Translations under genes and position numbers: made by a program
Part shown: positions 11,630 through 35,281 of the stretch, in pieces
How the letters are laid out: each line of letters begins with the position of its first letter
How positions within the stretch are numbered: the stretch's first letter is position 1
The notes under the pieces: model-generated
The model's input: only the letters and a program-made list of their open reading frames with translations
Database searches by the model: none
What the model was told of the DNA's origin: nothing
Assembly (NCBI GenBank): GCA_964630835.1
Contig: CAZVZM010000001.1
Coordinates: 60,151-124,150, forward strand
Length of the DNA stretch: 64,000 bases
Reading direction: 5' to 3'
From: an uncultured Halanaerobiaceae bacterium
Lineage (GTDB): Bacteria; Bacillota; Halanaerobiia; Halanaerobiales; Halarsenatibacteraceae

Positions 11630-12022
11630 TCAGGTGCTGCTCCTCACAGTTTTAGTGGCAATAATATCGGTATCCAGGCCGATAGGTTCAGATAAGATTG
11701 TATCGCCTTTGGAAATTGGTGCTTCAATAGATTTTTTGTTGAGAATTTCTATGACAGAGAAGAGCTTACTCCGGGGGATTTCATCCTCGCTTCTAACGCT
11801 TACCAGAGGTATCTTTCCATTTTCTACCTTCACATGATGTATCAGAGTTCTCTCTGGATTGAAAATTTCCTTACGCGTATAATCTCTACCTTCTTTACAT
11901 CTGGCTCCTTCCATGTTAATTGTTCTTTTGTCTGTATATGATGCTTCAATTTCACATCCCAGAGGACATTTAACACAGATAATCGTTTTTTTCGATAGGC
12001 TGCTGTAAGTCTTTTTATTCAT
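11630..12022 (-). CDS. DUF1667-type small Cys protein
   Basis: CVKCPLGCEI..GARCKEG..EIFNPER; typical third gene of the FAD-oxidoreductase trio. Confidence 0.75.
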   Translation of the reverse strand: MNKKTYSSLSKKTIICVKCPLGCEIEASYTDKRTINMEGARCKEGRDYTRKEIFNPERTLIHHVKVENGKIPLVSVRSEDEIPRSKLFSVIEILNKKSIEAPISKGDTILSEPIGLDTDIIATKTVRSST

Positions 12023-13274
12023 TTACAAACACCTGCACAGTTTCAGTGTTTTTTAATATTTTTTTGTTTGAATTTTCATCTTTATTGATTTTCACTTTTT
12101 CCATGCGGGAGGGATGCAGAGCTGGAAAACTTTTTTCGTTAATTATTTCTTTGCGGTTCTTTATTGATATCGCAGCACGAGTGAAGGGTTTTTCAGTTCG
12201 GAAAAATAATTCTGTTTCTTCACAAGCTTTTATAAGCTGGGGAATAACATAGTCTATTCCCTCTCCCGGTTCCACAAAAACATAATCTTTGTGGCCATCA
12301 GGATTATCTTTTAAATATTTTGCTGCAGATCTTCCTGCTCGAGCTGCCTCTGTAGAAACATAATCGACTATATCATGAATATGAAGGACATTTCCGGCGG
12401 CAAAAATCCCGGATATGTTTGTTTCCAGATTTTCTTTTACCAGAGGTCCGCCGGTAAGATTATCAAGGTGTATCCCTGCCTGGCGGGAGAGTTCATTTTC
12501 AGGAATCAGCCCGACGGAAAGCAGAAGAGTGTCGCAGTCCATTTTTTTTCTGGTAGAAGGAATGGGGTTTAAATCGTCATCAACCTTTGCACTTATCACA
12601 CCTTCTACTCTTGATTTTCCCAAAACTTCCACTGCGGTGTGATTTAGTTTTAGGGGAATATCAAAATCTTTCAGGCATTGATTTATATTTCGTGGCAGAC
12701 CGCTGGTGTAAGGCATTATCTCCAGAACCCCCTGCACTTCCACACCTTCAAGTGCCAATCGTCGAGCCATTATAAGGCCTATATCTCCGGATCCCAGAAT
12801 TACGGCCTTTTCCCCCACCATGATATTCTTCATATTAATCAGGTTTTGCACAAGTCCGGCTGTGTAGATTCCGGCAGGCCTTTCTCCGGCGATGGTGATG
12901 GCGCCTGCGGGCCTTTCTCTGCTGCCCATAGCCAGAATTACTGCAGCAGCATTAATTTTGCACATTCCTTTTTCCTCGTTGAAAGCTGTAATTGTTTTTT
13001 CTGAAGTTAATCCAGTTACAAGAGTGTTGAGCATACAGTCGATATTTCTCGATTTCATCTGATTTATATATCTGTCAGCGTATTCAGGCCCTGTGAGAGA
13101 TTGATCAAATTTTTGCAGGCCAAATCCATCATGGATACACTGTTTGAGTATGCCTCCCGGCTTATAATCCCTTTCGATTATAAGTATATCATCGATGCCG
13201 GCATCATGTGCAGAGATAGCTGCGGCCAATCCAGCTGGACCTCCTCCAATGATGACCAGCTCCCTATTTTCCAC
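12015..13274 (-). CDS. NAD(P)/FAD-dependent pyridine nucleotide-disulfide oxidoreductase (HcnB-like)
   Basis: IIGGGPAGLAAA, GGILKQCIHDGFG, TGPEYA, ILGSGDIGLIMARR and AGNVLHIHD motifs. Confidence 0.8.
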   Translation of the reverse strand: MENRELVIIGGGPAGLAAAISAHDAGIDDILIIERDYKPGGILKQCIHDGFGLQKFDQSLTGPEYADRYINQMKSRNIDCMLNTLVTGLTSEKTITAFNEEKGMCKINAAAVILAMGSRERPAGAITIAGERPAGIYTAGLVQNLINMKNIMVGEKAVILGSGDIGLIMARRLALEGVEVQGVLEIMPYTSGLPRNINQCLKDFDIPLKLNHTAVEVLGKSRVEGVISAKVDDDLNPIPSTRKKMDCDTLLLSVGLIPENELSRQAGIHLDNLTGGPLVKENLETNISGIFAAGNVLHIHDIVDYVSTEAARAGRSAAKYLKDNPDGHKDYVFVEPGEGIDYVIPQLIKACEETELFFRTEKPFTRAAISIKNRKEIINEKSFPALHPSRMEKVKINKDENSNKKILKNTETVQVFVNE

Positions 13275-14751
13275 GGCTGTTCACCTCTTTAACCGGTCCG
13301 GTAAACAAATATGAACTCTCCCTGTGAAGTTTTATGTCTGTTAGTTTTATTCCTTCTTCTCTCAATATTTGCACCACCTTTTCCAGGCAGTATCCTCCCT
13401 GACATCTACCCATAGTTATGCGGGTGCGGTTCTTGATAGCTCTTATTGTTCTGCTGCCCAGGGGATTACGCACTGCATCGAGTATTTCCTTTCTGGTTAC
13501 ATTTTCGCAGCGGCAGACAATATCTGCACTGGCGGGATTAACATCTGCCCTGTTACTTTTTTCTTCCGGACTGAGATCGTTAAAATATGGAGGACTGTCG
13601 CGATGTTCCTGAAAGGTTTTATCTTTTTTGAGGTTTTCTGCCTTATCCACCATATCCACCACGTATTCTGCAATTCCGGGGGCTGCAGTTAAGCCTGGAG
13701 ATTCAATGCCCAGCAGATTGATAAAATTATCGTGACGCGGGCTCTTTTTGATGACATAATCTGTGTATCCTCCGATTTCAGGAGGAACTATTTTGCTTCT
13801 GATGCCAGCATAGCTATTTATAATATCGCCGCGGGAGATTTCGGGAAGAAACTTTCTACCCTCTCTTATAAGGCGGTTCATAACATTTTTTGTGGTTGAA
13901 TGATCCTCTTTATTTTCAATGTACTCATCACTGGGTCCTATTAGTATATTGCCTTCAATTGTGGGGCTTAGATGAATGCCTCCTCCCCCTTTTTCGCGTG
14001 CTTCTTTTATCGGAGGGATAGGATATATTAGACGTGAAATCAGGTGGGATTTGTTTTTATCCAAAACGTGGTACTCGCCCCGGCAGGGGTATACTTTATA
14101 ATCGTTTTCTCCGGAAAAACTGGCAATTTTATCGGCATAAACCCCGGCAGAATTTATCACATAGCTGGCAGTGAACTTACGGTCAGCGGAGGAGAGGAGA
14201 AATATATTACCATTTTTTTCAATGCTTTTTATTTCGGAGTTGAGAAAAAGCTGCACTCCATTTTCTACAGCATTTTCTGCCAGAGCTATGGTCATTTCAA
14301 AGGGATTTACGATGGCACTGGTGGGAGAGTAAAGTGCGGCTTTACCTGGTGAAATGTTGGGCTCCATTTTCTTTATTTGATTTCTGCCGATGACTCCCAC
14401 CTCTGTGCCATTTTTTCTGCCAATATATTCAAACCTGTATAATTTAGGAATTCGATTTTTATTAAATGCCATCACAAGCTTTTCAGTTTCTTTAAAAGGA
14501 ATTGATAGTTTACTGCTTAATGATTTAATCTTTCTTTTTCCTCTCATATTGAGTTCTGCTTTCAGTGACCCCACGGGATAGCTAAAACCGGCGTGTATGA
14601 CACCGCTATTGCGGCTGCTGGCTCCTTCCCCTACATCTGCTTCCTTTTCCACCAGAGCTACATCGACTTTGAAACGGGAGAGTTCCCGAGCTATGGCGGC
14701 TCCAACTACACCGGCTCCAATGATTATGATATCAAATTTATTATTGTCCAT
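13264..14751 (-). CDS. FAD-dependent oxidoreductase, LhgO/GlpA (DAO) family, with C-terminal BFD-like [2Fe-2S] domain
   Basis: IIGAGVVG, SSRNSGVIHAG, GIESPGLTAAP, and C-terminal VCRCE..MGRCQGGYC. Confidence 0.8.
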   Translation of the reverse strand: MDNNKFDIIIIGAGVVGAAIARELSRFKVDVALVEKEADVGEGASSRNSGVIHAGFSYPVGSLKAELNMRGKRKIKSLSSKLSIPFKETEKLVMAFNKNRIPKLYRFEYIGRKNGTEVGVIGRNQIKKMEPNISPGKAALYSPTSAIVNPFEMTIALAENAVENGVQLFLNSEIKSIEKNGNIFLLSSADRKFTASYVINSAGVYADKIASFSGENDYKVYPCRGEYHVLDKNKSHLISRLIYPIPPIKEAREKGGGGIHLSPTIEGNILIGPSDEYIENKEDHSTTKNVMNRLIREGRKFLPEISRGDIINSYAGIRSKIVPPEIGGYTDYVIKKSPRHDNFINLLGIESPGLTAAPGIAEYVVDMVDKAENLKKDKTFQEHRDSPPYFNDLSPEEKSNRADVNPASADIVCRCENVTRKEILDAVRNPLGSRTIRAIKNRTRITMGRCQGGYCLEKVVQILREEGIKLTDIKLHRESSYLFTGPVKEVNSRGK

Positions 14752-14834
14752 AAAATACCTCCAAAAAATGATCGCCTCTAATAGTTCTTAATGTCTGGGA
14801 GAGTTCAGCTGTATGGAAACAAAAAGAGTTTACA

Positions 14835-16082
14835 TTATTTCATGCGGGGCAGAGTTGATATGCCAAAGGGAATAACCAGAACTTTTGCATCCCGTCCGAT
14901 ATCAGCAAGTGCTTCTTCAAGGGCAGAATTGACATCGCTGCAGCATCTAAAGAATAATTTTTCAGTGATGCTTTTAGGGAGAGAGGATACCAGTATTATT
15001 TCGCTGCTCTGATGAATATCTGCCACCCGGGAGGCTTTATGCCGGCCCAGAATAAATTCATTTTCAAGCTCTTCAATCAGCTCCTGTGGTGACTTATCAC
15101 CTGTAAGAGCTTCGGCAAAATTTTCTTCTCCCAGCCCATCTCCACACTCGCCCACAACAATCATTTTGCCTCCTTCTTTTACTGCTCTGGCTGCATGCTC
15201 CATTGATTTGTGAGTTTGATACAGGTCGATATCTTTGGGGAAACCGCCCGGAGAGGTAATTACTATATCTGCCTTTTCATCAATGCTTTTTTCGTATATT
15301 TCCTCAATATATTTTTTTCCCTGGCGATGAGCGGCTTCGATATCTCCGGAGACAATTTTGATAGTCTCTTTCTGCCTGTTGAGGACGGCATTTACAAGAA
15401 AGTCTACTCCTACCATATTTGCAATCTCTTCAATATCTTCGCGCACAGGGTTTCCCTCTATCTGGCCGCTTCTGGCCAGAGGATCCATGAACTGCTTATG
15501 ATTTTGCATGATTGTATTTTTGCTGCAAACACCCGGAGCGAGGGCTTTTGCGCCTCCGCTGAAGCCTGCAAAATAGTGATACTCAAGATTGCCGGTGGCT
15601 ACAATAAAGTCCGCATCCAGCACCTCTTTAAATACCTCCGCTTCTGTCCCACGACTGGTTATACCGATTTGTTCACATTGATACCTATCATGATCTATGC
15701 ATTTTATTCTGCTATATATTTCATCACCTACAAGCTTCTTTTTTTCTTCGGGAGTCTGTCTTCTGTGGACCCCCAGACCAAAAATAATTTTAATTTTGTC
15801 ATCGCTCACTCCTGAGGAGTTCAATCTATTAATGATGGGGGGGAGCATGACAGTGCTCGGGGCAGGTCGCGATATATCGCTGACCAGGATAACAACATTA
15901 TCCTCCGGGCTTACCAGCTCCTCAAGCTTTGCGCTTTCGATTGGAGCATCCAGGGACTTATTCACCTCTGCTTCTGGATTTGAGAGAGCCTCAGCTTCTT
16001 CAGGCATGATTTTCCCCTGAAAATTTTTATCGGGTATGTTTACAGTCAGCTTAGACCTGCCATACTTCAGTTTATTTTCCAC
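14835..16082 (-). CDS. larA: LarA-family nickel-pincer alpha-hydroxy-acid racemase/epimerase
   Basis: SDISRP, GLGVHR, HYFAGFSGGAK, NH and YQTHK motifs. Substrate unknown. Confidence 0.85.
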   Translation of the reverse strand: MENKLKYGRSKLTVNIPDKNFQGKIMPEEAEALSNPEAEVNKSLDAPIESAKLEELVSPEDNVVILVSDISRPAPSTVMLPPIINRLNSSGVSDDKIKIIFGLGVHRRQTPEEKKKLVGDEIYSRIKCIDHDRYQCEQIGITSRGTEAEVFKEVLDADFIVATGNLEYHYFAGFSGGAKALAPGVCSKNTIMQNHKQFMDPLARSGQIEGNPVREDIEEIANMVGVDFLVNAVLNRQKETIKIVSGDIEAAHRQGKKYIEEIYEKSIDEKADIVITSPGGFPKDIDLYQTHKSMEHAARAVKEGGKMIVVGECGDGLGEENFAEALTGDKSPQELIEELENEFILGRHKASRVADIHQSSEIILVSSLPKSITEKLFFRCCSDVNSALEEALADIGRDAKVLVIPFGISTLPRMK

Positions 16083-16123
16083 AAATTTAACCTCCTATTA
16101 TGAGAGAGTTTAAGTTTTTTAGT

Positions 16124-17086
16124 TTAATAAACAAGTTTGCCTTTTCTGACTATATCCCGATCATCTATTATAACCGAAGGTTTTTCTATCAGTCCATCGA
16201 GATGAATGCTGCTTTCTCTGCTGCCTCCCAGTGATATATTGTCACCAATGGCAAAGTGGACTGTGCCTCTTTTTTTCTTGTCTTCAGCCAGATTGCCAAT
16301 AAGGAGAGCGGCGGGATTTGTACCGATTGCAAATTCTGCAATGTTTGTGGCATTTTCATCAGCGTTATCCACTATATCTTTCAGCATATCAGCTTCTTTT
16401 CCTCCTTTTATCTCCTGAACCCGGCCCTCGCTGACTTCCAGAACTATATTATCTTCCAGGGCCCCTATATTGTCCATAGCGCAGTCGAAAACAATTCTTC
16501 CCTCAGCGGAGTCCTCAACAGGGCATGTAGGAGCTTCTCCCGGGGGAAGGGTGGCAAAACCGGTCTCCTTGTGAAAAAATCCATCGAGAGCAAAGGCTTC
16601 TCTGCCAGCAATGGAAAAGGTGACGTCTGTTCCCTGATTTGAGGTGACCCTGACTTTTTCCCCTTCAGTTATAATGCTCCGGACTTCGTCGGTGGTTTTC
16701 TTCAGTTCATCGAAGTCGGCGGTCAGAGCTCCTTCAATTAACATTTCCTCGGTGGTGCCTCTTAAAACCACTGTTTTGGTGCCCTCTTTAAAGGCATCCA
16801 GACGGGCATTAGTGTGAGTGATTGCGTATGTTGTCAGAGCAAAGACTGTGTCGGCCGTTTTCATGGCTTCTGCTACCATATTTCCGGGCTCATTTCCGTG
16901 TTCTTTCAGGAGTGGCATCACCATAAAGTAGGTCTCGCTGCTTATGTTTCTGGCTATGACTGAAAAGGAACGTCCTAGCTTATATTTTTTGGGGTCGGCC
17001 AGTATCAGGACATTATCCCCCTCTTCAACCCTGATGACATCTTCAATAATTTCTCTGATTTTTGGCGCCATTTCAAAATCAAGCAT
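16124..17086 (-). CDS. Peptidase M29/aminopeptidase T-like metalloprotein (short form)
   Basis: LPPGEAPTCP, AEFAIGTNP, EDKK..GTVHFAIGDN and S.IHLD motifs. Confidence 0.65.
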   Translation of the reverse strand: MLDFEMAPKIREIIEDVIRVEEGDNVLILADPKKYKLGRSFSVIARNISSETYFMVMPLLKEHGNEPGNMVAEAMKTADTVFALTTYAITHTNARLDAFKEGTKTVVLRGTTEEMLIEGALTADFDELKKTTDEVRSIITEGEKVRVTSNQGTDVTFSIAGREAFALDGFFHKETGFATLPPGEAPTCPVEDSAEGRIVFDCAMDNIGALEDNIVLEVSEGRVQEIKGGKEADMLKDIVDNADENATNIAEFAIGTNPAALLIGNLAEDKKKRGTVHFAIGDNISLGGSRESSIHLDGLIEKPSVIIDDRDIVRKGKLVY

Positions 17087-17146
17087 ATAATCTCCTCCTT
17101 AATAAAATTTAAAGTTAAAAAGTTCGGTTCTTTTCCAAAAATATTA

Positions 17147-17914
17147 CTAATTCCTGTCCGCATTCTTTCCCGCTGTGGCAGCATACACGGCAAATTCTTT
17201 TCGGCCATCTATCTCAAGCAGGGAATCTATCTCCTCCTGGTCATAGGCGCCAATAGCACAGATGCCAGTATTGAGAGCTTCGCCAGCCAGATAGAGATTT
17301 TGACATATATGTCCAGCTTCCAGAGCAATCAATCTGGGTGAAAGCCTGCCATACCTCCACTCAGTTCGCCGGGGAAGAGAGGTCCAGACAAACACTGCGG
17401 CGCTATCGGGTATGAATTTTTGCTGATTAAAAGTCTCGCTGTGGCAGGCTTTTCCCATTATTTCAATGATTTTGTCCTCTTCATAAATTAAGGCCAGTTT
17501 ATTTCCTCGGGGAAGATATCTGTATATTCCGGGGTTTAAAGATTTTATTCTTCCGGCTGCCAGATAAGTTTCAAAGGGGTAACGAGCCCCTGCTGAAGGG
17601 GCAATTCGCTTTCTTTTTCCTTCTCCTTTCGTCCCCTGGGCGGCTGCAAGCATAAAAGAAAGCTCATCAATGTCTATATATTCATCGCTGTAATCTCTTC
17701 TGCTGCGGCGGCTCCAGAGCACTTCCTTTAAGTCCGAATTTATGGGAGAGATATCATCATGAGGAGGCAAATTTATGATATCGACTGCATCCTCACACGA
17801 TTTTTGGTACGGAGGAGGAGATAACCCCTGTTGCTGTTCTGTTTCCATCTCTTTAAGTTTGTCCCAGGGACCGGCTCGCAAAAATTCTCTGTGGCTTTTG
17901 TTATTTTTATGCAT
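17147..17914 (-). CDS. SagB/ThcOx-type nitroreductase-family flavoprotein
   Basis: RRSRRDY, APSAGARYPFETY and EAGHICQNLYL..GICAIGAY motifs. Start set at ATG 17914 after AGGAGG. Confidence 0.8.
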   Translation of the reverse strand: MHKNNKSHREFLRAGPWDKLKEMETEQQQGLSPPPYQKSCEDAVDIINLPPHDDISPINSDLKEVLWSRRSRRDYSDEYIDIDELSFMLAAAQGTKGEGKRKRIAPSAGARYPFETYLAAGRIKSLNPGIYRYLPRGNKLALIYEEDKIIEIMGKACHSETFNQQKFIPDSAAVFVWTSLPRRTEWRYGRLSPRLIALEAGHICQNLYLAGEALNTGICAIGAYDQEEIDSLLEIDGRKEFAVYAATAGKNADRN

Positions 17915-17993
17915 TTTATTTACCCTCCTCCTGAACTGAGCGGTAAAAAATTTAGTTTTTTCAAAAATCAATTTTAATATAACTATCCATCTT

Positions 17994-18794: not shown

Positions 18795-18884
18795 ATGATC
18801 ACCTCAAATTTATGATTCATAGTTCGATAAATTTTGAACTCAATCTTCAATTTTAATAAAATCTAAGGTTTTCCGATCACTCGC

Positions 18885-28305: not shown

Positions 28306-28306
28306 A

Positions 28307-28432
28307 TTTTTGATATCTTCTCCGTAATTACTGGTGAAATTTACGAGATATGCCTGTAAAACGATAGTTGCTCACTTCCTATTATAGGAAGCTATGAGTC
28401 GAAGTGATACTCGAAGTTTTTCAAAGCCCGAG
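28307..28432. repeat. Dispersed composite repeat, copy B
   Basis: 28307-28380 is the reverse complement of the 35775-35842 module. A CTTCC-TATTATA-GGAAG junction follows, then GGAAGCTATGAGTCGAAGTGATACTCGAAGTTTTTC, matching 53811 onward. Confidence 0.75.
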
Positions 28433-28614
28433 CTAAAATTTTATAAAAAAATGCACATATATTATATACAAACTGCAGAGAGGAGGGGTTAAAAAGCTGA
28501 TATAAAGGATTAAATCAATGGCTGGAAATTGTTTTTAAAAACACCTGTTTTGCAGTAAAATTGGCATTGAAAGTGTATTTTGTGATTATCATTTAATTTC
28601 AGGGGGGTTTATTA

Positions 28615-29586
28615 ATGAAAAAAAGTTCAGTTCTATTTACTGTGGTAGCTCTAGTAATGGCTATTTCGCTAATTTCTGCACCTGCAATGGGAGCGGATGA
28701 ATTTCCGGAACAGGAAATTAATATCATTGTTCCCTTTGCTCCCGGAGGCGGTACAGATGTTTATGTAAGAAATATATCTTCACACCTTGAAGAGGAACTG
28801 GGCGTTCCTGTTGTTGTAGAAAACATTGAAGGAGCCGCTTCTCTGCGCGGAATAGGTCTTGCTCATGGAGCGGAACCTGATGGATATACTTTAATTGCTT
28901 TTAATCCACCATCTCCACATATGGCTATTGCCACACAGGGAGCCCACTTTACCGTAGATGAATTTGAATTAATCGGAGGTTATGCTATGGAGGGGCCGCT
29001 GCTTTCCGTACACCCCGATCAGCCCTATGAAACTTTTGAAGAGGTACAGGAAGCATATCGCGAGGGTGAAATTGAACTTCATGCTACCCAGTCTGAAGGA
29101 ACAATATTGCATATATCCACCGTTCTGGCCATGGAGTTTGCAGAGCTGGAAATAGATGAGTATATCCCCTATCCCGGTTCTGGAGAGATTATAGCTGCTA
29201 TGATAAGAGAAGAGGCTCCAACAGGAATTTCTACAGCCGGAGCAGCTATAGATCATATTGCTGATGGTTCATTGAGACCCATTGTTTTCATGGGACATGA
29301 GAGATATCCAGGACTTCCGGATGTTCCTTCAATCGCTGAACTGGGTTACGAAGAAGCTGCTTTGCCGCAGTTTAGACTTCTGGCGGCTCCCGAGGGGACA
29401 CCTGAAGAAATAGTGGACACACTGGAAAATGCTCTTCTCAGCGCTTTAGAGCAGGATGAACTGCTGGAATGGGCTGAGGAAGCCGATAGACCGGTTGAGC
29501 CTCTGACCGGCGAACAGGTTACTCAAATGAATGAGGATCTGGGAGAAACCATGGAATTTCTGCAGGAAGAGGGTATACTGGATTAA
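28615..29586 (+). CDS. tctC: Tripartite tricarboxylate transporter substrate-binding protein (TctC/Bug)
   Basis: Signal peptide, then FPEQEINIIVPFAPGGGTD, VVENIEGA, A.PDGYT and LPDVPSIAELG. Confidence 0.85.
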   Translation: MKKSSVLFTVVALVMAISLISAPAMGADEFPEQEINIIVPFAPGGGTDVYVRNISSHLEEELGVPVVVENIEGAASLRGIGLAHGAEPDGYTLIAFNPPSPHMAIATQGAHFTVDEFELIGGYAMEGPLLSVHPDQPYETFEEVQEAYREGEIELHATQSEGTILHISTVLAMEFAELEIDEYIPYPGSGEIIAAMIREEAPTGISTAGAAIDHIADGSLRPIVFMGHERYPGLPDVPSIAELGYEEAALPQFRLLAAPEGTPEEIVDTLENALLSALEQDELLEWAEEADRPVEPLTGEQVTQMNEDLGETMEFLQEEGILD

Positions 29587-29604
29587 ATTAAAAACCAGTG
29601 TATT

Positions 29605-29635
29605 TCCGGTGCAGCAGCTTCCCTGCTGCACCGGA
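29605..29635 (+). terminator. Stem-loop between tctC and tctB
   Basis: TCCGGTGCAGCAG-cttcc-CTGCTGCACCGGA perfect 13-bp stem followed by TTTT. Confidence 0.65.
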
Positions 29636-29712
29636 TTTTATAACTGATTTATAAAAGTGGTCATAAAGTTTTAACTTTTATTCTATGTATTTGGAAGGGA
29701 GGAGGATCTAGT

Positions 29713-30207
29713 TTGAAGGCCCTAAAAAATATTCTTATTAGATTTGACAGCCTCCTGGAAGTGCTGCTTCTTATTATAATTTTAGGTGTATCAATTTTTT
29801 TTCACCTGGAAGCATATTCTTTTTCAGACGATTCAAGAATTTATCCTCTGGTCACTTCCGGACTGGCCATAATTTTAACAGTTATTTATGTAACTATGAA
29901 GCTTTATAAAAACAGAGATAAAAAAGCCTCGGAAGAAGATTTTAAAAATTTAATTAACCCCACTTTCAAAAGGGTGCTATTTTCTGCTGTTTCTTTTGTT
30001 ATATACCTTCTGGCTGTATATTATTTCGGTTTTTTCTTGGCTTCAATCGCTTATATGATTTCCTATCCTCTGGCACTCGGTTTTAGAAAAATTCCGACCA
30101 TCATTATAGGTGTTATAACCGTAGCAGTCATAATTCTGGCATTTGAGTATGTGCTGGGTGCCGGTTTGGTTTCGGGAGAGCTTATTGAGCTGGATTTCTT
30201 ATTTTAA
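29713..30207 (+). CDS. tctB: TctB small permease
   Basis: 164 aa, about four hydrophobic segments, YYFGF motif, located between tctC and tctA. Confidence 0.75.
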   Translation: MKALKNILIRFDSLLEVLLLIIILGVSIFFHLEAYSFSDDSRIYPLVTSGLAIILTVIYVTMKLYKNRDKKASEEDFKNLINPTFKRVLFSAVSFVIYLLAVYYFGFFLASIAYMISYPLALGFRKIPTIIIGVITVAVIILAFEYVLGAGLVSGELIELDFLF

Positions 30208-30280
30208 ACCTGAAATTATACAATTGATGGAACAGATTATAAAATTACGATAGAATAACAACATTAAGGAGAGGAAACCT

Positions 30281-31768
30281 ATGTTAGGCATTTTAGGTGA
30301 GGCGATGTTATTTATAGTTCAACCCTATACACTGCTGCTGGTTTTAGCAGGAGTTATAGTGGGAGTGATAGTGGGTGCCATTCCCGGAGTGGGTCCTCCG
30401 GTTGCAATAGCGCTTTTGATTCCAATAAGCTATCCGCTCGGGCCCAATTATGCATTGGTGCTGCTTGTCAGTGTTTACAGCGGGGGAATGTTTGGTGGGG
30501 CTATAGCCTCAATACTGATAAATGCCCCGGGCACGGGAGCTTCGGCTGCGACCACAATTGACGGATATCCTATGGCCCGGAAAGGGCAGGCTCAAACAGC
30601 CCTCTCAATTGCTGCTTTTTCATCCGCTCTGGGAGGGATTTTTTCCGGGATCGTTCTTCTCTTTGGCATACCCTATCTGAGAGAGTTTGTATTGATGTTT
30701 GGAACTCCTGAATTCTTTTTGCTCGGCATACTTGGTATTGTTTTGATTGCCGTTGTAAGTAAAAAGTCAATGTTAAAGGGTTTGATCGGAGGTTGCTTTG
30801 GCCTTATGATGACAACAATAGGCATCGCTCCCATGGATGCCCAGATAAGATATACTTTTGATCTCTTTGCACTATACGATGGCATAGGATTTTTGCCGGC
30901 AATAATTGGTCTCTTTGCCATTGCAGAGATGCTGAAACTGGCAGGGGAGGATGCTTTAGGAATTTCAAAAGATTTAACTCTTTCAGGAAGCACGCTGGAA
31001 GGGATTAAGGTTGTTCTAAGAAACAAGCTCCTTTCTCTCAGGTCCGCTATATTTGGATTGTTGATCGGTACTGTCCCAGGAGCAGGAGGAACTACTGCAT
31101 CATTTATCGTATATTCACAGCTGAGTTCTTCTGCAGATGAATCGGAAGGGTATGGTGAGGGTAATCCTAAAGGCCTTGTAGCCACTGAGTCTTCAAACAA
31201 TGCTGTTATTGGGGGAGCTCTGGTTCCCACTCTGCTTTTTGGTATTCCCGGGAGCTCCACCACTGCCGTGCTTTTAGGTGGTATGCTCATACACGGGCTG
31301 AGGCCCGGTCTGGAGTTGTTTGAAGGAGAAGGTCTATTTACAGTTTATATAATTGCCCTGGCTCTTGTGCTCGGTCATCTGATGAAATTTATTCTGGGGA
31401 TTTCAGGATCAGGGCTTTTCAGCAAGGCTACGACTCTGAGAAAAGAAATTCTCATTCCAGCAGTGATGATTCTTTCTTCAATCGGTATCTATATTATTGA
31501 TCTGAACCATTTTGATCTGGTTCTGATTACAGTTTTCGGATTTATAGGCTACCTGATGGTTAAAAATAACTATCCGGTGATACCAATTATACTGGCTGTG
31601 ATACTGGGTGGAATGATAGAAGCTGATCTTTACAGGAGTTTAAGAATTGGAAGAGGTTCTTTGTTGTTTCTCCTGGAGAGGCCAATTTCGATTGTACTGA
31701 TTGTATGTATGATTATAATTCTTTCCAGCCCCATTTTGAAAAAACTGTATAAGCGGGTCTCAAATTAA
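30281..31768 (+). CDS. tctA: TctA large permease
   Basis: GAIPGVGP, INAPGT.ASAATTIDGYPMA..G, ESSNNA and LLFGIPGS motifs. Confidence 0.9.
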   Translation: MLGILGEAMLFIVQPYTLLLVLAGVIVGVIVGAIPGVGPPVAIALLIPISYPLGPNYALVLLVSVYSGGMFGGAIASILINAPGTGASAATTIDGYPMARKGQAQTALSIAAFSSALGGIFSGIVLLFGIPYLREFVLMFGTPEFFLLGILGIVLIAVVSKKSMLKGLIGGCFGLMMTTIGIAPMDAQIRYTFDLFALYDGIGFLPAIIGLFAIAEMLKLAGEDALGISKDLTLSGSTLEGIKVVLRNKLLSLRSAIFGLLIGTVPGAGGTTASFIVYSQLSSSADESEGYGEGNPKGLVATESSNNAVIGGALVPTLLFGIPGSSTTAVLLGGMLIHGLRPGLELFEGEGLFTVYIIALALVLGHLMKFILGISGSGLFSKATTLRKEILIPAVMILSSIGIYIIDLNHFDLVLITVFGFIGYLMVKNNYPVIPIILAVILGGMIEADLYRSLRIGRGSLLFLLERPISIVLIVCMIIILSSPILKKLYKRVSN

Positions 31769-31816
31769 GAAAATTATGCTTTGCAGGAATCGTTGTTTTC
31801 ACCCTTAATTAATTAG

Positions 31817-32896
31817 GTGGGAGATAATTTGACTGAAAATCAAAATAGAGTTTATCCTGAGCGCCTGGAATTTTTCACTCGCAAGCTGCTTCAGGCAGCT
31901 GGTCTTTGTAAAAACCATGCCGAAATTGTGACTTCATCTCTTATTGATGCAAATGTCAGCGGTAAAGATAGTCATGGTGTAACCAGGCTGCCAACTTATT
32001 TGAAAAGGCTGGAGAGAGGGTTGATTAATAGGCGGCCTCGAATAAGTTTTAAAAAGAAATCGGATGGGACCGGCATTGTTGATGGTGACAATGGCATGGG
32101 ACATATTGCTGCCATGAAAGCAGCAGAAAAGTCGGCAGAAATTGCGGAAGAAACTGGAGCTGCTTTTATTGGAGTTAAAAACAGCAACCACTTTGGAACA
32201 GCGGGTTATTATGCAAAACATATTCTTTCTAATAATAAAATAGGATTTGTTTTTTCCAGTGCTGCCCCCACCATGGTTCCTCACGGAGGAGCAACACCTG
32301 TTTTGGGAACCAATCCCCTGGCAGCAGGTATTCCCACCAGAGGAGAATTTCCAATTGTTATAGATATGGCTACAAGTGTGGTGGCCCGGGGCAATATTTT
32401 GCTTGCCGATAAAGAAGGAAAGAAGATTCCTGAGGGCTGGGCTGTTGATACTGAGGGTAGGCCTACAACTGATGCCGGGAAGGCTCTGGAAGGAGCTGTT
32501 CTCCCATTTGCAGGGCCTAAAGGATATTCGCTGGCTTTACTGGTTGATGTGCTTTCAGGTGTATTGACCGGGGCTTCCTGGGGTAAACATATAAATTCTC
32601 AAAATACCGACTTTGAAAATCCTCAGGATCTTGGGCATTTTATGGGGGCAATTGATATTGAAACCTTCATGACTCTTGATGTATTCAGGGAGAGAATACA
32701 GGAGTTTGTAAGAGAAATTAAGGATATCCCCCCTGCTCCGGATCAGGAGGAAGTTATGTTGCCGGGGGAAATAGAAGCCCGGACCGAAAGAAAAAGGCGC
32801 AGGGAAGGAATACCCATACCACTTTCTGTTGCGGGAGAGTTAAAAGATCTGGGTGACAAATATGATCTGGACAGGAATCTGCTTGAAGTTTTTTGA
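31817..32896 (+). CDS. Ldh_2-family (malate/L-lactate/sulfolactate-type) oxidoreductase
   Basis: DSHGVTRL, DGDNGMGH, NSNHFG, GTNPLA..DMATS and KGYSLAL motifs. Confidence 0.85.
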   Translation: MGDNLTENQNRVYPERLEFFTRKLLQAAGLCKNHAEIVTSSLIDANVSGKDSHGVTRLPTYLKRLERGLINRRPRISFKKKSDGTGIVDGDNGMGHIAAMKAAEKSAEIAEETGAAFIGVKNSNHFGTAGYYAKHILSNNKIGFVFSSAAPTMVPHGGATPVLGTNPLAAGIPTRGEFPIVIDMATSVVARGNILLADKEGKKIPEGWAVDTEGRPTTDAGKALEGAVLPFAGPKGYSLALLVDVLSGVLTGASWGKHINSQNTDFENPQDLGHFMGAIDIETFMTLDVFRERIQEFVREIKDIPPAPDQEEVMLPGEIEARTERKRRREGIPIPLSVAGELKDLGDKYDLDRNLLEVF

Positions 32897-32940
32897 TCCC
32901 AAACCTTTGAAAGTTATCTTTTTCTTAACAGGATATATCA

Positions 32941-34227
32941 ATGCTTTTAGGGAGGTATATATCAATCGGAAAATTATTTTCACAGAATTTGCACGATAAA
33001 ATAAGAGATAAATTTCATTACGTTGATGAGAGCCCCTACGCCGGTCGGAGAATTTTTCTGGACTCCGTTTCAGGGGCTTTGAGGTTAAAAGACATGGGAG
33101 AAAGAGCATGTAAAGAAGTCAAATCCTATGCCCAAAAAAATAGAGTTGATCCTGCCTCTGTTCATTTTGCTGAAATTAAGAGGAAATTCAAAAGCGATGC
33201 CCGGCTATTTTTCGGAACAGATTCGGGTAATATTGTGCCCGCAATGAGCGGCACTCACGCCATTTATCGCTGTGTAAATGCTGTCTGTGCCGCTGCGAAA
33301 GCCGGAAATAATATTGTAACTACAGGCCTGGAACACCCGGCCGCTTATGAAGCAACACATCAATTTGCCCAAAAATACGATCTGGAGAGAAGAGTGGCAG
33401 ATTTTGATCCTGAGAGTGGATTTGTGCCCGCAGATAATATCTTAGAACATGTGGATCAGGATACAGAGCTGCTTATGATTATTCATGGCTCAAATGTTAC
33501 CGGTGCTGTGAATAATATTAAAGAAATTGTTGCGAGAGCCCGAAAAAAGAATCCGGATATTTATGCTGTCGTGGATGGAGTTCAATATGCACCCCATGGT
33601 TTGATCAATGTTGAAGAGCTGGGTGTGGATGCCTATGCTATAAGCGGCTATAAAATATTTTGCAAGAAGGGCAGCGGGATAGCCTGGATAAATGAAAGAT
33701 TTGATCGGCTTCCTCACTGGCAGTTTCGTGAGAGGCCGGAAGGAGAATGGGCAATTGGCGCAGAGGATGAGTCCACATATGCGGGTTTTTCAGCAGTCAT
33801 AAACTATCTTAAATGGTTGGGTGAAAAATTTGTCAGCAGTGACGATGAAAGGGACAGAGTTTCTGCTGCTATGGAAAAAATAAGTTCCCATACTGAAGCC
33901 CTGATGGCAACTGCCCTGGAGGGCAGTGAAGGTCAGAAAGGACTGCGGAAAATGAGGAATGTAAAGATTTTTGGGCTTAAGGGCAGGCCGGAAAATAGAA
34001 CCGGTCTCATATCATTTAAAATTGAAGGTGAGGACTCACTTGAAGCTGCCCGAAAATATTTTGATAAGTTCGGAATCAGTCTCAGCACCAGGGAAATGAA
34101 CATATATGCCAGACACATTCTTGAAAGGCTGGGAGTGAACAATCTGATCAGAGCTTCATTTTGTCATTATAATTGTCAGCGGGAGATTAAGGAATTCATT
34201 GACGCAACTAATAAGCTGCAAAGCTAA
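32941..34227 (+). CDS. Class-V PLP enzyme (cysteine-desulfurase-like)
   Basis: LEHPA, GSNVTG, DGVQYAPH, PLP lysine in SGYK and C-terminal RASFCHYN. Confidence 0.8.
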   Translation: MLLGRYISIGKLFSQNLHDKIRDKFHYVDESPYAGRRIFLDSVSGALRLKDMGERACKEVKSYAQKNRVDPASVHFAEIKRKFKSDARLFFGTDSGNIVPAMSGTHAIYRCVNAVCAAAKAGNNIVTTGLEHPAAYEATHQFAQKYDLERRVADFDPESGFVPADNILEHVDQDTELLMIIHGSNVTGAVNNIKEIVARARKKNPDIYAVVDGVQYAPHGLINVEELGVDAYAISGYKIFCKKGSGIAWINERFDRLPHWQFRERPEGEWAIGAEDESTYAGFSAVINYLKWLGEKFVSSDDERDRVSAAMEKISSHTEALMATALEGSEGQKGLRKMRNVKIFGLKGRPENRTGLISFKIEGEDSLEAARKYFDKFGISLSTREMNIYARHILERLGVNNLIRASFCHYNCQREIKEFIDATNKLQS

Positions 34228-34239
34228 GATTGATTTATA

Positions 34240-34400
34240 ATGGTTTTAATTGTCCTGCTGAAGTTGGTCAATGCCCTGGGAGCTCCTTTGCTGGCTGCAA
34301 ATGTGATCGTCATGCTGCTGGCATCCTTTTTGATGGGTTTATCAGCTCTGGGCTGGCCCGGCCTTTACTACACTGCGGTGAGTGAAAAAAGCAGAGGAGT
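34240..34400 (+). pseudogene. Possible remnant of a membrane transporter gene (MFS-like internal helices)
   Basis: Short hydrophobic ORF (LLASFLMGLSALGWPGLYYTAVSE) that looks like an internal transporter segment and runs out of frame into the citE start. Resemblance judged by eye only. Confidence 0.3.
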
Positions 34401-34408
34401 GAACTTAT

Positions 34409-35281
34409 ATGCTGCGCTCTATTTTATTTATGCCCGGAAACAATGAAAAAATATTAAGCAGGGTGGAGAAGTTAAATGCGGATGCAGTAATTCTTGATCT
34501 GGAAGATGGAGTGCCGCCTGCAGAAAAGGAAAAAGCGCGGGAGCTGGTATACAGGCGCCTGCAAAGTCTGAAGGTAGCGGATCTTAAAAAAAGAATATAT
34601 GTCAGGGTGAACGGCCCGGGTATGGGGTGTATGCGTGAGGACCTGAGAGCAGTTCTGTCTCCTGTGCTTGATGGTCTTATGCTTCCTATGGTTAACTCAA
34701 CGCAAGAGATACATAAATTAACCACTCTGCTCACTGTATTAAGCACCGGCAAAAAAGATATAAAGCTAAATGAGCTCAGCCTTCTGCTCAATGTGGAAAC
34801 GGCCAGGGGAATTCTCAATCTCTCTGAGCTTATGTCAGCTACAGATCTGGTGAGCGGTGCAGCTCTGGGGGGAGAAGATCTTTCTTTGGATATGAGGGCC
34901 AAACGAACTTCAGGTGGCAATGAGATTGCTTATGCCCGTTCTCACCTGGTGATGGCTTCCAGGGCAGCAGACAAACTTGCTATTGATACGGTTTTTACCG
35001 ATATTGAAGATACAGAAGGCTTAAGAAAAGAGGCCAGGGAGGCTGCCCGGATGGGTTATGATGGCAAATTGCTGATCCATCCGTCTCAAATAGAACCTGT
35101 TAACGAAATATTTATGCCGGCTCCGGAGGAGATAAATTTTGCCCGCAGGGTTGTTGAAGCCTTTGAGCGGGGAGAAGAGGAGGGGCGGGGAGCTGTCAAA
35201 GTTGACGGCAAAATGGTGGATCCTCCGGTGGCCGCTCGCGCCAGGCGCATTTTGGAGATGGCTGATGATAGAATTTTTTGA
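34409..35281 (+). CDS. CitE/HpcH-HpaI-family CoA-ester lyase (citryl-/malyl-/citramalyl-CoA lyase-like)
   Basis: RSILFMPG, DAVILDLEDGV, VRVN, GGEDL and GKLLIHPSQI motifs. Confidence 0.85.
   Translation: MLRSILFMPGNNEKILSRVEKLNADAVILDLEDGVPPAEKEKARELVYRRLQSLKVADLKKRIYVRVNGPGMGCMREDLRAVLSPVLDGLMLPMVNSTQEIHKLTTLLTVLSTGKKDIKLNELSLLLNVETARGILNLSELMSATDLVSGAALGGEDLSLDMRAKRTSGGNEIAYARSHLVMASRAADKLAIDTVFTDIEDTEGLRKEAREAARMGYDGKLLIHPSQIEPVNEIFMPAPEEINFARRVVEAFERGEEEGRGAVKVDGKMVDPPVAARARRILEMADDRIF

Follow-up and report, generated by a model that had tools for sequence, protein, structure and literature searches.

An uncharacterised Fe-S protein pair beside a carboxylate transporter in a divergent, possibly modular catabolic locus

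In the window (the whole 64,000-nucleotide stretch of DNA analysed, from an uncultured anaerobe), a divergent 24-kb locus contains two adjacent genes, fer4X and y212, whose products form the conserved core of similar loci across many anaerobic phyla. This uncharacterised Fe-S pair is the most interesting part of the locus; in hundreds of anaerobic species it is found next to carboxylate transporters. The conserved novel unit is the pair plus a TTT transporter, joined in some loci by an Ldh_2 dehydrogenase, an aldolase, a SagB enzyme or a NicX-like enzyme. The other genes are an addition specific to this lineage, and the island is not conserved as a whole. ORFs and domains support the proposal of the earlier note of a GntR-centred locus for carboxylate import and catabolism; the regulator is of the GntR/FCD type. 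We put at about even the chance that this divergent locus serves the catabolism of an imported carboxylate under GntR/FCD control and arose by combining modules instead of descending as a single block.

The locus comprises 16 minus-strand genes, where 15 had been counted previously, and 8 plus-strand genes, as reported; the divergence from 26444–26934 and the mostly short or overlapping junctions also agree with the earlier description. Every minus-arm junction is at most 115 nt or overlapping, and a hairpin search of the intergenic stretches of this arm found no minus-strand terminator. Plus-arm gaps are 15–309 nt. Both boundaries are sharp: a hairpin terminator lies on the left, and on the right a 12/12 promoter (35343–35371), a T-box leader (35423–35691) and a terminator (35673–35706) precede panB/ilv/leu. 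The features are as follows.

11561–11591: hairpin terminator between pmbA (+) and the last minus-arm gene (13-bp stem, 7 GC pairs)
11630–12022, minus: DUF1667 protein, third gene of the GlpA/LhgO-like trio (PF07892, 85 bits)
12015–13274, minus: FAD/NAD(P) Pyr_redox_2 oxidoreductase, second trio gene (PF07992, 110 bits)
13264–14751, minus: DAO flavoprotein with C-terminal BFD-like [2Fe-2S] domain, GlpA/LhgO-like (PF01266, 236 bits; PF04324)
14835–16082, minus: LarA-family nickel-pincer racemase (NF052593, 546 bits, cutoff 500)
16124–17086, minus: NicX/M29-like metalloenzyme (partial PF02073)
17147–17971, minus: SagB-type nitroreductase-fold FMN enzyme (PF00881; TIGR03605, 108 bits, cutoff 78)
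17994–18794, minus: fumarylacetoacetate-hydrolase (FAH) family enzyme (PF01557, 241 bits)
18885–20108, minus: malic enzyme, short form (PF00390, PF03949)
20124–20858, minus: RraA-like class II pyruvate aldolase/oxaloacetate decarboxylase (PF03737; NF004850, 252 bits, cutoff 231)
20901–21848, minus: succinate-CoA ligase alpha, SucD (NF004230, 394 bits, cutoff 336)
21754–22911, minus: succinate-CoA ligase beta, SucC (NF001913, 423 bits, cutoff 370)
22944–23480, minus: 2-oxoacid:ferredoxin oxidoreductase gamma, KorC (PF01558)
23480–24295, minus: the same, beta, TPP-binding, KorB (PF02775)
24306–25445, minus: the same, alpha, KorA (NF006412, 475 bits, cutoff 411)
25429–25629, minus: the same, delta, KorD, 66 aa, two [4Fe-4S] motifs (ferredoxin and OGOR_delta matches)
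25745–26443, minus: GntR regulator with FCD effector domain, first minus-arm gene (PF00392, PF07729)
26735–26782: perfect 15-nt inverted repeat, AATGTCAAATGTATT, 18-nt spacer, AATACATTTGACATT
26935–27651, plus: Fer4X, 238 aa, N-terminal two-[4Fe-4S]-motif ferredoxin domain and conserved C-terminal domain of ~170 aa
27667–28305, plus: Y212, 212 aa, without family
28615–29586, plus: TctC-family solute-binding protein with signal peptide (PF03401)
29605–29635, plus: strong hairpin, then T-run, directly 3′ of tctC (13-bp stem, 9 GC pairs)
29713–30207, plus: TctB small membrane subunit (PF07331)
30281–31768, plus: TctA large membrane subunit (PF01970, 425 bits)
31817–32896, plus: Ldh_2-family NAD(P)-dependent 2-hydroxyacid/cyclic-imine dehydrogenase (PF02615, 403 bits)
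32941–34227, plus: class-V PLP enzyme, cysteine-desulfurase-like (PF00266)
34409–35281, plus: CitE/CLYBL-like acyl-CoA lyase, last plus-arm gene (PF03328)

The gene set listed in the earlier note was placed correctly, with the SagB-type flavoenzyme, the NicX/M29-like metalloenzyme and the class-V PLP enzyme absent from it. The inverted repeat overlaps the plus-arm promoter TTGACA-17-TATAAA, including its −35 box, and is a candidate operator.

Both members of the pair are uncharacterised, as had been claimed, with no relatives of their novel parts in Pfam, NCBIfam or the PDB. Fer4X (AF2 pLDDT 86) matches only Fer4 families in Pfam and NCBIfam, and its C-terminal domain has no PDB relative by sequence or Foldseek, only the ferredoxin part being matched. 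It has all eight cysteines of a ferredoxin with two clusters, and an invariant charged motif, GRGTEExKTNDV. Y212 (pLDDT 92) matches neither a Pfam nor an NCBIfam family, and PDB searches by sequence and fold returned no relative. Among 130 diverse members, 26–53% identical to the window protein, C155-G-H157, C190, C192 and N196 are 100% conserved and an N-terminal M-T-H-x-x-H-R is 89–98% conserved; Y212 is probably the catalytic partner to Fer4X, with a metal or Fe-S centre. The two genes are translationally coupled and co-evolving, with a median intergenic gap of 4.5 nt and a mirror-tree r of 0.86 (≤0.08 for shuffled partners). The family comprises ~850 clusters at 50% identity and includes natural fusions of Y212 to a CooF-like polyferredoxin.

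Synteny was compared across 80 related genome loci encoding the pair. Fer4X and Y212 are adjacent in ~77 of them, TctC is nearby in 32, and TctA lies within 10 kb in 39, so the core arrangement exceeds chance. Some loci (L043, L049) have the pair lodged between tctC and tctB/A; TRAP DctM is nearby in 7. A CooF-like/Prismane-like/Pyr_redox_2 trio lies immediately upstream of the pair in 18–23 loci, including all those whose pair is 59–67% identical to that of the window. NicX-like homologues adjoin the pair or the TTT genes in 9 of the 80 loci, and a DHDPS-fold pyruvate aldolase stands beside the pair in 8. The neighbouring pyruvate aldolases thus represent three unrelated folds (RraA here, HpaI in L084, and DHDPS). 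Further neighbours include sugar-acid dehydratases, amidohydrolases, AFOR, TPP enzymes and CoA-transferases. Since these neighbourhoods are heterogeneous, the family probably handles several substrates. Conserved synteny of the whole island was not found: the following components occur in 1–5 of the 80 loci each (Kor genes 2–5, LarA 3, RraA 2, FAH 2, SucCD with CitE 1, malic enzyme 1).

The sole clearly orthologous operon, L084, encodes Fer4X, Y212, TctCBA, an HpaI/GarL-like aldolase, Ldh_2 and, as its last gene, the SagB-type orthologue (52–75% identity overall, 52% for the latter). It has an AraC regulator, whereas the window has GntR/FCD, and it lacks the Kor/SucCD arm. Because of these differences, and as the island is not syntenic, the idea of a dedicated route for one substrate is unsupported. 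The view that the combination matches no described pathway fared better: the citrate lyase and malyl-CoA pathways, the sulfolactate slc/suy cluster and the LigK aldolase were each rejected on at least one defining feature.

Kor and SucCD match generic or succinyl-CoA models, and they could be housekeeping genes sitting behind the regulator by chance. Links across the two arms suggest that these function jointly: an Ldh_2 gene follows the closest RraA-like homologues in every case, SucC-SucD-CitE adjoin Y212 in L051, and of the enzymes encoded in the minus arm, the SagB type ends the L084 operon and the NicX-like type recurs beside the pair. The GlpA-like trio, within the same run of close junctions, may be a glycerol-3-phosphate dehydrogenase separate from the acid pathway. 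Its DAO flavoprotein was also compared with type-2 glycerol-3-P oxidase (280 bits, cutoff 460) and LhgO (219, cutoff 299), failing both, and its Pyr_redox_2 member is above the cutoff of no NCBIfam model.

Our best reading of the locus is a lineage-specific fermentative funnel centred on an uncharacterised enzyme linked to ferredoxin; the most likely substrate is an acid sugar or a di/tricarboxylate of the hydroxy or oxo type. TctCBA would import the acid, and Fer4X-Y212, in a role assigned solely from position, would perform the committed, electron-transfer-dependent step at a putative Cys3/His metal or Fe-S site in Y212, to which the two [4Fe-4S] clusters of Fer4X would conduct electrons. 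For this step, reduction or oxidation of the acid by two electrons is a plausible though tentative choice; a redox-activated dehydration or lyase reaction is a less likely one. The electrons would come from or pass to ferredoxin, whose turnover would fall to the four-subunit oxidoreductase of the opposite arm; in the next-closest group (L004, the pairs 59–67% identical) a dedicated CooF-like/CODH-like/NAD(P)H-flavoprotein trio may substitute for it. Ldh_2, the SagB-type flavoenzyme and the NicX-like metalloenzyme would convert the intermediate to a 4-hydroxy-2-oxo acid, which the RraA-like aldolase and FAH enzyme would cleave to pyruvate and a C2–C4 fragment. D/L-malate would yield pyruvate via malate racemase and malic enzyme, and 2-oxo acids would be oxidised to acyl-CoA and reduced ferredoxin. 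SucCD would then make ATP from succinyl-CoA, or activate a hydroxy-diacid for subsequent cleavage or formation by the CitE/CLYBL-like lyase.

Individual assignments vary in precision. LarA, earlier placed in an unassigned set, passes the NCBI malate-racemase equivalog and is predicted to be a malate racemase of the Mar2/LarAH6 type, which has been characterised and tied to malic enzyme (PMC7583248); here the two genes are three genes apart. The malic enzyme matches the N-terminal portion of PRK12861 with 388 bits. The FAH enzyme, for which no NCBIfam equivalog reached its cutoff, may at family level be a hydratase, hydrolase or decarboxylase of 2-oxo/2,4-dioxo acids. The closest PDB match of the RraA-like protein is the HMG/CHA aldolase 3noj, and the sole PDB relative of the NicX-like protein is NicX (7cn3, E 4.7e-12). 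KorB scores 268 bits against its model (cutoff 364), and KorD is annotated as a gene on L002. SucC failed as malate-CoA ligase (335 bits, cutoff 604). The real start of SucD is probably ~27 codons downstream of that annotated, as the NF004230 match begins at residue 28.

In the plus arm, Ldh_2 failed as sulfolactate dehydrogenase (300 bits, cutoff 500) and AllD (277, cutoff 356), and the CitE-like protein, whose top PDB match is CLYBL (5vxc), failed as citE (230, cutoff 443) and RipC (173, cutoff 375). The class-V PLP enzyme reaches 148 bits against TIGR01976 (cutoff 352), with SufS/CsdB as PDB relatives (74–86 bits). The top PDB relatives of TctC are BugE, Bug27, AdpC and a terephthalate-binding protein. 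The hairpin directly behind its gene is probably an attenuator that lifts expression of the binding protein over that of the membrane subunits.

The 24-kb cluster at 11630–35281 consists of two arms that diverge from a shared intergenic region. Its coordinates and gene content, as claimed in the earlier note, hold on ORF and domain annotation. The count of 8 genes for the plus arm also stands, whereas the minus arm contains 16 genes rather than 15. All of the genes named in that note are present; those encoding a SagB-type protein, a NicX-like protein and a PLP enzyme had been left unlisted.

Features of the locus and its borders
48–8381: ornithine oxidative-fermentation genes (2,4-diaminopentanoate dehydrogenase, PALP enzyme, MutL-like PF13941 protein, B12-dependent ornithine/lysine aminomutase and racemase)
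8787–11481: tldD/pmbA, after the ornithine genes
11561–11591: hairpin terminator, left boundary
11630–26443, minus strand: minus arm, 16 genes, encoding a GntR/FCD regulator (first gene), four Kor subunits (2-oxoacid:ferredoxin oxidoreductase), SucC, SucD, an RraA-like aldolase, malic enzyme, an FAH enzyme, a SagB-type nitroreductase-fold protein, a NicX/M29-like protein, LarA, and the three proteins DAO+BFD, Pyr_redox_2 and DUF1667
25429–25629, minus strand: Kor delta subunit (66 aa, two [4Fe-4S])
26444–26934: divergent region
26735–26782: 15-nt perfect inverted repeat, candidate GntR operator
26935–35281, plus strand: plus arm, 8 genes, encoding Fer4X, Y212, TctC, TctB, TctA (tripartite tricarboxylate, or TTT, transporter), an Ldh_2 dehydrogenase, a class-V PLP enzyme and a CitE-like lyase
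26935–27651, plus strand: Fer4X, 238 aa
27667–28305, plus strand: Y212, 212 aa
29605–29635: hairpin (13 bp, 9 GC pairs) with T-run, between tctC and tctB
35343–35371: sigma-70 promoter (12/12 match), right boundary
35423–35691: T-box leader (Rfam 88.7 bits, E 6e-20), right boundary
35673–35706: strong terminator, right boundary
41796–43373 and 46687–48252: two LeuA-type (HMGL-like + LeuA_dimer) genes of the ilv/leu operon

Junctions within the minus arm are at most 115 nt long or overlapping, and no minus-strand terminator was found between its genes. The edges of the locus are sharp on both sides. On the right, the promoter, T-box and terminator precede panB, an aminotransferase gene, ilvB/N/C and leuA; the T-box score lies just below the Rfam gathering score of 93, so that it was missed at the default threshold. 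One of the two LeuA-type genes in this neighboring operon may encode a citramalate synthase. Considering genes of at least 150 aa, the minus arm is the sole minus-strand block in the 64-kb window, and G+C falls to 0.38–0.41 at 26–30 kb, a stretch that takes in the divergent region and the tct genes; both observations would fit a segment that was inverted or inserted.

The earlier note had rightly singled out the locus and two uncharacterised proteins, Y212 and Fer4X. Y212 matches zero Pfam or NCBIfam families, its profile finds no match among all PDB chains (best E 0.12), and its AF2 model, despite a pLDDT of 91.8, has no fold match in the PDB by Foldseek (best E 0.058, TM 0.28–0.32). Fer4X consists of an N-terminal ferredoxin domain with two [4Fe-4S] motifs and a C-terminal domain of ~170 aa (AF2 pLDDT 86). 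This second domain likewise lacks a family or fold, since all Pfam, NCBIfam, PDB and Foldseek matches are confined to residues 1 to ~77. For neither protein did a PDB match reach E ≤0.001 in Foldseek; matches to beta-alpha-beta, PII and ACT folds were generic and too weak for use.

An exhaustive profile search with Y212 returned 847 clusters at 50% identity with E ≤1e-3, and 229 with E ≤1e-30, whose members are nearly all stand-alone proteins of 200–230 aa that begin at the conserved N-terminus. No tblastn match to Y212 was found in 72,556 plasmids. Among 130 diverse members, 26–53% identical to the window protein, C155-G156-H157, C190, C192 and N196 are 100% conserved, and M1, H3, H6 and R7 are 89–98% conserved. 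The three cysteines together with the histidine may form a metal centre or an open-site Fe-S centre. The first seven residues, M-T-H-T-L-H-R (27667–27690), are almost invariant across the family and contain the only low-confidence stretch of the AF2 model (residues 2–4 below pLDDT 50); this combination suggests an N-terminal arm that would become ordered only upon binding a metal, a cofactor or Fer4X. Fer4X itself shows an invariant motif rich in charged residues (R65, R68, D73, H78, G-R-G-T-E-E-x-K-T-N-D-V, R99, E110, G-R-P, E139, E171 and K229), which would fit the binding of an anionic substrate or cofactor.

Paralogy of Y212 and Fer4X is not demonstrable, given an hhalign probability of 14%, and the only common stretch is '...N-L-x-L-G'. 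The NCBI name 'DUF362' borne by some Fer4X homologues was not reproduced; as Pfam gives no DUF362 match in Fer4X, we attribute the name to the ferredoxin insert. Membership of these proteins in the new nickel-pincer enzyme family, which lies within the aldo-keto reductases (PMC13524815), was ruled out. Two homologous proteins, P0292 and P0325, are natural fusions of Y212 (residues 1 to ~206) with a C-terminal CooF-like multi-[4Fe-4S] domain and independently link Y212 to an Fe-S electron-transfer chain. Literature searches on TTT systems with 4Fe-4S proteins in anaerobic degradation, on 6-hydroxynicotinate reductase and on anaerobic dipicolinate clusters yielded no paper on the pair. The core pair is new in that it falls outside all described families and folds, and it occurs widely among strict anaerobes.

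In a synteny scan of one genome per species, at least 394 loci encode relatives of Y212. Among the carriers are Bacillota, Desulfobacterota, Dehalococcoidia, Synergistales, Acidobacteriota, some Alphaproteobacteria and one Bathyarchaeote, and the pair family is also found in Atribacteria and Aerophobetes. Halanaerobium sp. MA284_MarDTE_T2, Desulfosporosinus lacus DSM 15449 and Gelria sp. Kuro-4 are examples of carriers in culture. Fer4X lies directly upstream of Y212 in ~77 of the 80 best loci, with a median gap of 4.5 nt, and the distance matrices of the two proteins are correlated (r = 0.86, compared to ≤0.08 with shuffled partners). The occurrence of two pairs in 14 genome loci indicates strong expansion of the family by paralogy; four tandem pairs are present on one 6.8-kb sediment contig (L097, 15–5777).

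Neighbours within 10 kb of the pair, as number of loci among the best 80 of at least 394
TctA: 39
TctC: 32
Ldh_2: 14
GntR: 14
NicX-like: 9
Kor subunits: 2–5
LarA-like: 3
RraA: 2
FAH: 2
SucCD+CitE: 1
malic enzyme: 1

These counts identify the conserved unit as the Fe-S pair plus a carboxylate transporter, not the 24-kb island, and the pair is the most constant neighbour of TTT-type transporters. The combination of larA, kor, sucCD, TTT and Fe-S genes, which the earlier note had viewed as one system, is accordingly not conserved as a whole among the 80 loci; what persists is the pair with its transporter. Nor is a single dedicated fermentative route for one hydroxy-di/tricarboxylate supported, since Kor, SucCD, malic enzyme and LarA are rarely near the pair. 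De novo clustering of all neighbouring ORFs identified further partners: aldolases of the DHDPS family (8 loci), NAD_binding_2/DUF1932 and HIBADH-like dehydrogenases, AP_endonuc_2 isomerases, IlvD/Edd and GD_AH dehydratases, PdxA-like, AFOR and TPP enzymes, GlcD/F-like proteins, amidohydrolases and CN-hydrolases, as well as sigma-54 and LysR regulators and TRAP transporters.

In 18–23 loci, a trio of genes encoding a CooF-like polyferredoxin, a ~490-aa Prismane/CODH-like protein and a Pyr_redox_2 flavoprotein lies directly upstream of the pair; these include L004 (6141–9253), L008, L011–L013, L015, L025, L034, L039, L057, L068 and L091–L095. CooS, CooF and FNOR are modules of Ni-CODH gene clusters (PMC8776680). 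The related loci resemble such clusters in that CooF-like, Prismane/CODH-like and Pyr_redox_2 genes stand in the same order before the pair, but here the ~490-aa protein is coupled with the Fe-S pair and a transporter for carboxylates instead of with CO metabolism. Its CooS match is confined to the N-terminal cysteine motif (52 bits versus a cutoff of 478), and this 'mini-CODH-like' protein is, by its neighbourhood, linked to carboxylate catabolism rather than CO. Pairs 59–67% identical to that of the window occur in L004 (a Halanaerobiales MAG), L091, L092, L094 and L095, all with the trio before the pair. Where the contig extends (L004, L091 and L095), TctCBA follows the pair, and a NicX-like gene comes next in L004 and L091.

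Just one locus, L084 of a Bacillota MAG, seems to be an orthologue over the length of the operon, with identities to the window proteins of 68% (Fer4X), 75% (Y212), 62% (TctC), 72% (TctA), 56% (Ldh_2) and 52% (SagB-type). It consists of an AraC gene followed by Fer4X-Y212-TctCBA, an HpaI/GarL-like aldolase, Ldh_2 and the SagB-type gene, and is without the Kor/SucCD arm. The metagenome scan for close relatives revealed no second copy of the full island. The trio is absent from the window, where the divergently encoded Kor would be the obvious in-cluster electron partner.

The window enzymes could be assigned to differing depths. TctC, TctB and TctA, encoded together, all score over the gathering scores of PF03401, PF07331 and PF01970; the best solved relatives of TctC, at 65–109 bits, bind differing ligands. 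Both succinyl-CoA synthetase equivalogs are passed, NF001913 by SucC (423 versus 370) and NF004230 by SucD (394 versus 336), and the ligase fails the malate-CoA ligase model NF010647 (335 bits versus 604). Kor is complete, with alpha, beta (TPP), gamma and delta (two [4Fe-4S]) subunits. Its alpha subunit passes the generic 2-oxoacid model NF006412; against the 2-oxoglutarate-specific models, alpha scores 379 versus 579, beta 268 versus 364 and delta 48 versus 125. The LarA homologue passes, over its full length, the NCBI equivalog NF052593 for LarAH6-type malate racemases (546 bits versus 500); larB, larC and larE were not found among the annotated window genes. The LarAH6 group has been characterised as Mar2, and genomic context ties it to malic enzyme (PMC7583248). 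A malic enzyme gene is likewise present in the minus arm, three genes from larA, but here both lie inside a 16-gene operon.

The RraA-like protein passes the unnamed PRK06201 subfamily model (252 versus 231). LigK/GalC is the HMG/CHA aldolase of the protocatechuate/gallate meta-cleavage pathway. As an RraA-fold class II pyruvate aldolase/oxaloacetate decarboxylase, it is the best solved relative of the window protein (PDB 3noj), which nevertheless fails both LigK/PcmE cutoffs (NF006731, 149 versus 179; TIGR02798, 125 versus 304) and whose conserved partner gene in anaerobes is Ldh_2, not LigJ or LigI. The CitE-like protein has a CitE/CLYBL-like fold, with CLYBL as its best solved relative and malyl-CoA lyase next, and stays below the cutoffs of the models for citE, RipC and malyl-CoA lyase (for the last, NF041626, 72 bits versus 500). 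Citrate lyase CitDEF was rejected, the CitE model TIGR01588 giving 230 versus 443 and CitD and CitF being absent from the 24 genes of the locus. Ldh_2 fails the cutoffs for ureidoglycolate dehydrogenase and for the (R)-sulfolactate dehydrogenase ComC (NF040650, 300 bits versus 500). The pyridine-ring enzyme NicX is the only solved relative of the NicX/M29-like protein, and the PLP enzyme resembles SufS/CsdB only distantly.

Several minus-arm genes have partners from the plus-arm module in other genomes. A SagB-type gene is the last in the L084 operon, NicX-like genes flank the pair or the TTT genes in 9 of the 80 loci, and SucC-SucD-CitE adjoin Y212 in L051. In each of the closest RraA-like homologues (Caldanaerobacter, Thermoanaerobacterium and a metagenome contig), an Ldh_2 gene directly follows; these adjacent genes of Thermoanaerobacterales-type loci (L087, 5110–6904; L088, 10001–11750; L090, 7514–9263) sit in TRAP/SDR/AFOR/2-Hacid_dh/CdaR sugar-acid clusters. 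The same loci also hold a 92-aa ORF of no known kind, a tungsten-type AFOR, Fe-ADH, 2-Hacid_dh, TRAP, SDRs, FGGY kinases and CdaR. Pyruvate-forming aldolases of three unrelated folds are found beside the pair, namely RraA in the window, HpaI in L084 and DHDPS elsewhere, and this recurrence speaks for cleavage of a 4-hydroxy-2-oxo acid as one step of the pathways that the pair would serve.

We propose a seven-step mechanism, to which as a whole we give even chances. By family assignment, TctCBA would import a hydroxy- or oxo-di/tricarboxylate or an acid sugar. From gene context, Fer4X-Y212 would then carry out an electron-transfer-dependent step on the free acid, the intermediate would be tailored by Ldh_2, the SagB-type flavoenzyme and the NicX-like enzyme, and the RraA-like aldolase with the FAH enzyme would release pyruvate and a small fragment. 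Malate racemase and malic enzyme, again by family assignment, would convert D/L-malate to pyruvate. The context further suggests that Kor and SucCD may conserve energy and recycle ferredoxin, and that the CitE/CLYBL-like lyase may handle a hydroxy-diacyl-CoA, with SucCD possibly the activating ligase. A bolder and tentative reading, somewhat unlikely in its entirety, is that Fer4X-Y212 represents a new family of metalloenzymes, dependent on ferredoxin, that carry out the first hard step on free, non-CoA carboxylates imported by TTT or TRAP systems in strict anaerobes, the window island being one complete fermentation pathway built on that chemistry. That step might, for example, be a reductive dehydroxylation, the reduction of a ring or a desulfonation; the invariant Cys-Gly-His...Cys-x-Cys of Y212 and its conserved N-terminus M-T-H-x-x-H-R would form the active site, and the divergent Kor would supply electrons within the cluster.

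The locus could also be a mosaic in which unrelated modules were juxtaposed and co-oriented behind the regulator, the pathway being the plus arm, perhaps with the SagB-type, NicX-like and RraA-like enzymes. KorDABC-SucCD would then be an ordinary 2-oxoglutarate-to-succinate branch, malic enzyme and malate racemase a separate D/L-malate module, and the DAO-containing proteins a glycerol-3-phosphate-type dehydrogenase. Kor, SucCD, malic enzyme, FAH and LarA each occur near the pair in just 1–5 of the 80 loci, L084 lacks the Kor/SucCD arm, SucC and SucD pass the models for succinyl-CoA synthetase, and the best match of the DAO protein is glycerol-3-phosphate oxidase, all of which fit such an assembly. 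We regard it as unlikely in view of the 16 closely spaced genes uninterrupted by a terminator and headed by the regulator gene itself, the interleaving of the cross-linked SagB-type, NicX-like and RraA-like genes with the 'housekeeping' genes, and the unique orientation of the arm in the window. A disguised malyl-CoA (glyoxylate-oxidising) cycle combined with D-malate use is improbable. The enzymes of this pathway, according to Friedrich and Schink and Sakai et al., are reportedly a CitE-type lyase, a SucCD-type ligase, malic enzyme and a 2-oxoacid:ferredoxin oxidoreductase, and all four types are present in the locus. The CitE-like protein would condense glyoxylate and acetyl-CoA to malyl-CoA, SucCD would act as malyl-CoA synthetase to yield ATP, malic enzyme would form pyruvate and Kor would regenerate acetyl-CoA, while the upstream enzymes would merely supply glyoxylate, for example from 4-hydroxy-2-oxoglutarate via the RraA-like aldolase. 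Anaerobic glyoxylate/glycolate oxidation by this pathway occurs in Syntrophobotulus and Moorella (PMC6313629, PMC8092247), and the structural relatives of the CitE-like protein agree with it. However, the lyase and the ligase both fall short of their specific models, whereas the succinyl-CoA model is passed; the locus has no glycolate dehydrogenase or other evident glyoxylate source; and the conserved Fe-S pair, the transporter, and the SagB-type and NicX-like proteins would be left unexplained.

Two further proposals concern the substrate. An N-heterocyclic or amide carboxylate, such as the pyridine-dicarboxylate dipicolinate, appears quite improbable. Fer4X-Y212 would reduce the ring with electrons from ferredoxin, dihydro/tetrahydro intermediates would be handled by the SagB-type protein and Ldh_2, ring opening would fall to the NicX/M29-like enzyme, and FAH and the aldolase would cleave a C7 or C5 2-oxo-diacid. 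The relationship to NicX favours this assignment, if only circumstantially, as do the inclusion of the cyclic-imine reductase delta1-piperideine-2-carboxylate reductase (1wtj) in the Ldh_2 family, the near-threshold score of the DHDPS neighbours on the DapA model (206.0 versus 206.15), the amidohydrolase, CN_hydrolase and asparaginase_II genes near the pair, the best match of the L084 aldolase to the C7 enzyme 4-hydroxy-2-oxoheptanedioate aldolase, and the binding of aromatic dicarboxylates such as terephthalate by solved TctC proteins. Many loci, however, carry sugar-acid enzymes instead (IlvD/Edd, GD_AH, PdxA-like, HIBADH-like and AP_endonuc_2), and a literature search gave no anaerobic dipicolinate gene cluster for comparison. 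Of these enzymes, the HIBADH-like dehydrogenase best matches tartronate-semialdehyde reductase (below cutoff), and AP_endonuc_2 is a xylose-isomerase-like TIM barrel. A C3 sulfonate, sulfolactate or cysteate, is a very improbable substrate. TctCBA and Ldh_2, whose best model is L-sulfolactate dehydrogenase, would correspond to SlcHFG and ComC, and LarA would interconvert the enantiomers of sulfolactate, which is malate's sulfonate analogue. Cysteate or cysteine sulfinate would be the substrate of the class-V PLP enzyme, and desulfonation would fall to Fer4X-Y212 as a new enzyme of that kind. The sulfolactate cluster slcHFG-slcC-comC (+suyAB) is sulfolactate-induced in an anaerobe (PMC10507020, which cites Denger and Cook 2010) and, like the window, places a TTT importer beside an Ldh_2-family dehydrogenase and handles 2-hydroxy stereochemistry in the cluster. 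A SuyB/UxaA-type GD_AH gene lies upstream of the pair in L004, and many pair carriers are sulfite, thiosulfate or sulfate reducers. The window locus differs in its many extra genes, in lacking SlcC, Xsc, sulfite-handling genes and any protein with a SAF or GD_AH domain (the domains of SuyAB), and in that stereocentre inversion would fall to a LarA racemase, which passes the malate-racemase equivalog; Ldh_2 remains under the ComC cutoff.

TctCBA operons are exemplified by the citrate system of Salmonella, and their Bug/TctC binding proteins include BugE, AdpC and the terephthalate-binding protein. The window has all three components in canonical order and a binding protein with a signal peptide, but its regulator is of the GntR/FCD type, not TctDE, and its transporter is coupled to an Fe-S enzyme pair that is part of no described TTT system. 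As a system, a catabolic operon with a TTT importer under the control of a regulator is of a known kind, whereas its core enzyme pair is new. LutABC, which oxidises a small hydroxy acid, is built of several Fe-S subunits without flavin and includes a ferredoxin-like domain. In these respects it is a functional analogue only: no sequence relation was detected, and its CCG and LUD domains are absent from Fer4X and Y212.

To our knowledge, TTT transporters are abundant, yet very few have known substrates, especially in anaerobes. Once solved, the reaction of the pair would allow annotation of 'hypothetical' operons by the hundreds, from metagenomes of the subsurface, gut and digesters, and would show which dissolved organic acids sustain these communities; it may prove to be a new Fe-S-dependent reaction on free carboxylic acids. 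The window offers a ready-made set for finding the substrate: regulator, candidate operator, binding protein, enzyme pair and downstream funnel.

The regulator matches both the winged-helix PF00392 and the FCD effector domain PF07729. The 15-nt perfect inverted repeat in the divergent region overlaps the -35 box of the plus-arm promoter (TTGACA-17-TATAAA) and is a candidate GntR operator; its half-site CATTTGNCAA has 2 matches in the window versus 1.2 expected, and is not enriched. An Rfam scan of the divergent region and of the 309 nt that separate Y212 from tctC gave no credible riboswitch. Directly after tctC, the hairpin with its T-run probably acts as an attenuator inside the operon and would set how much binding protein is made relative to the membrane subunits.
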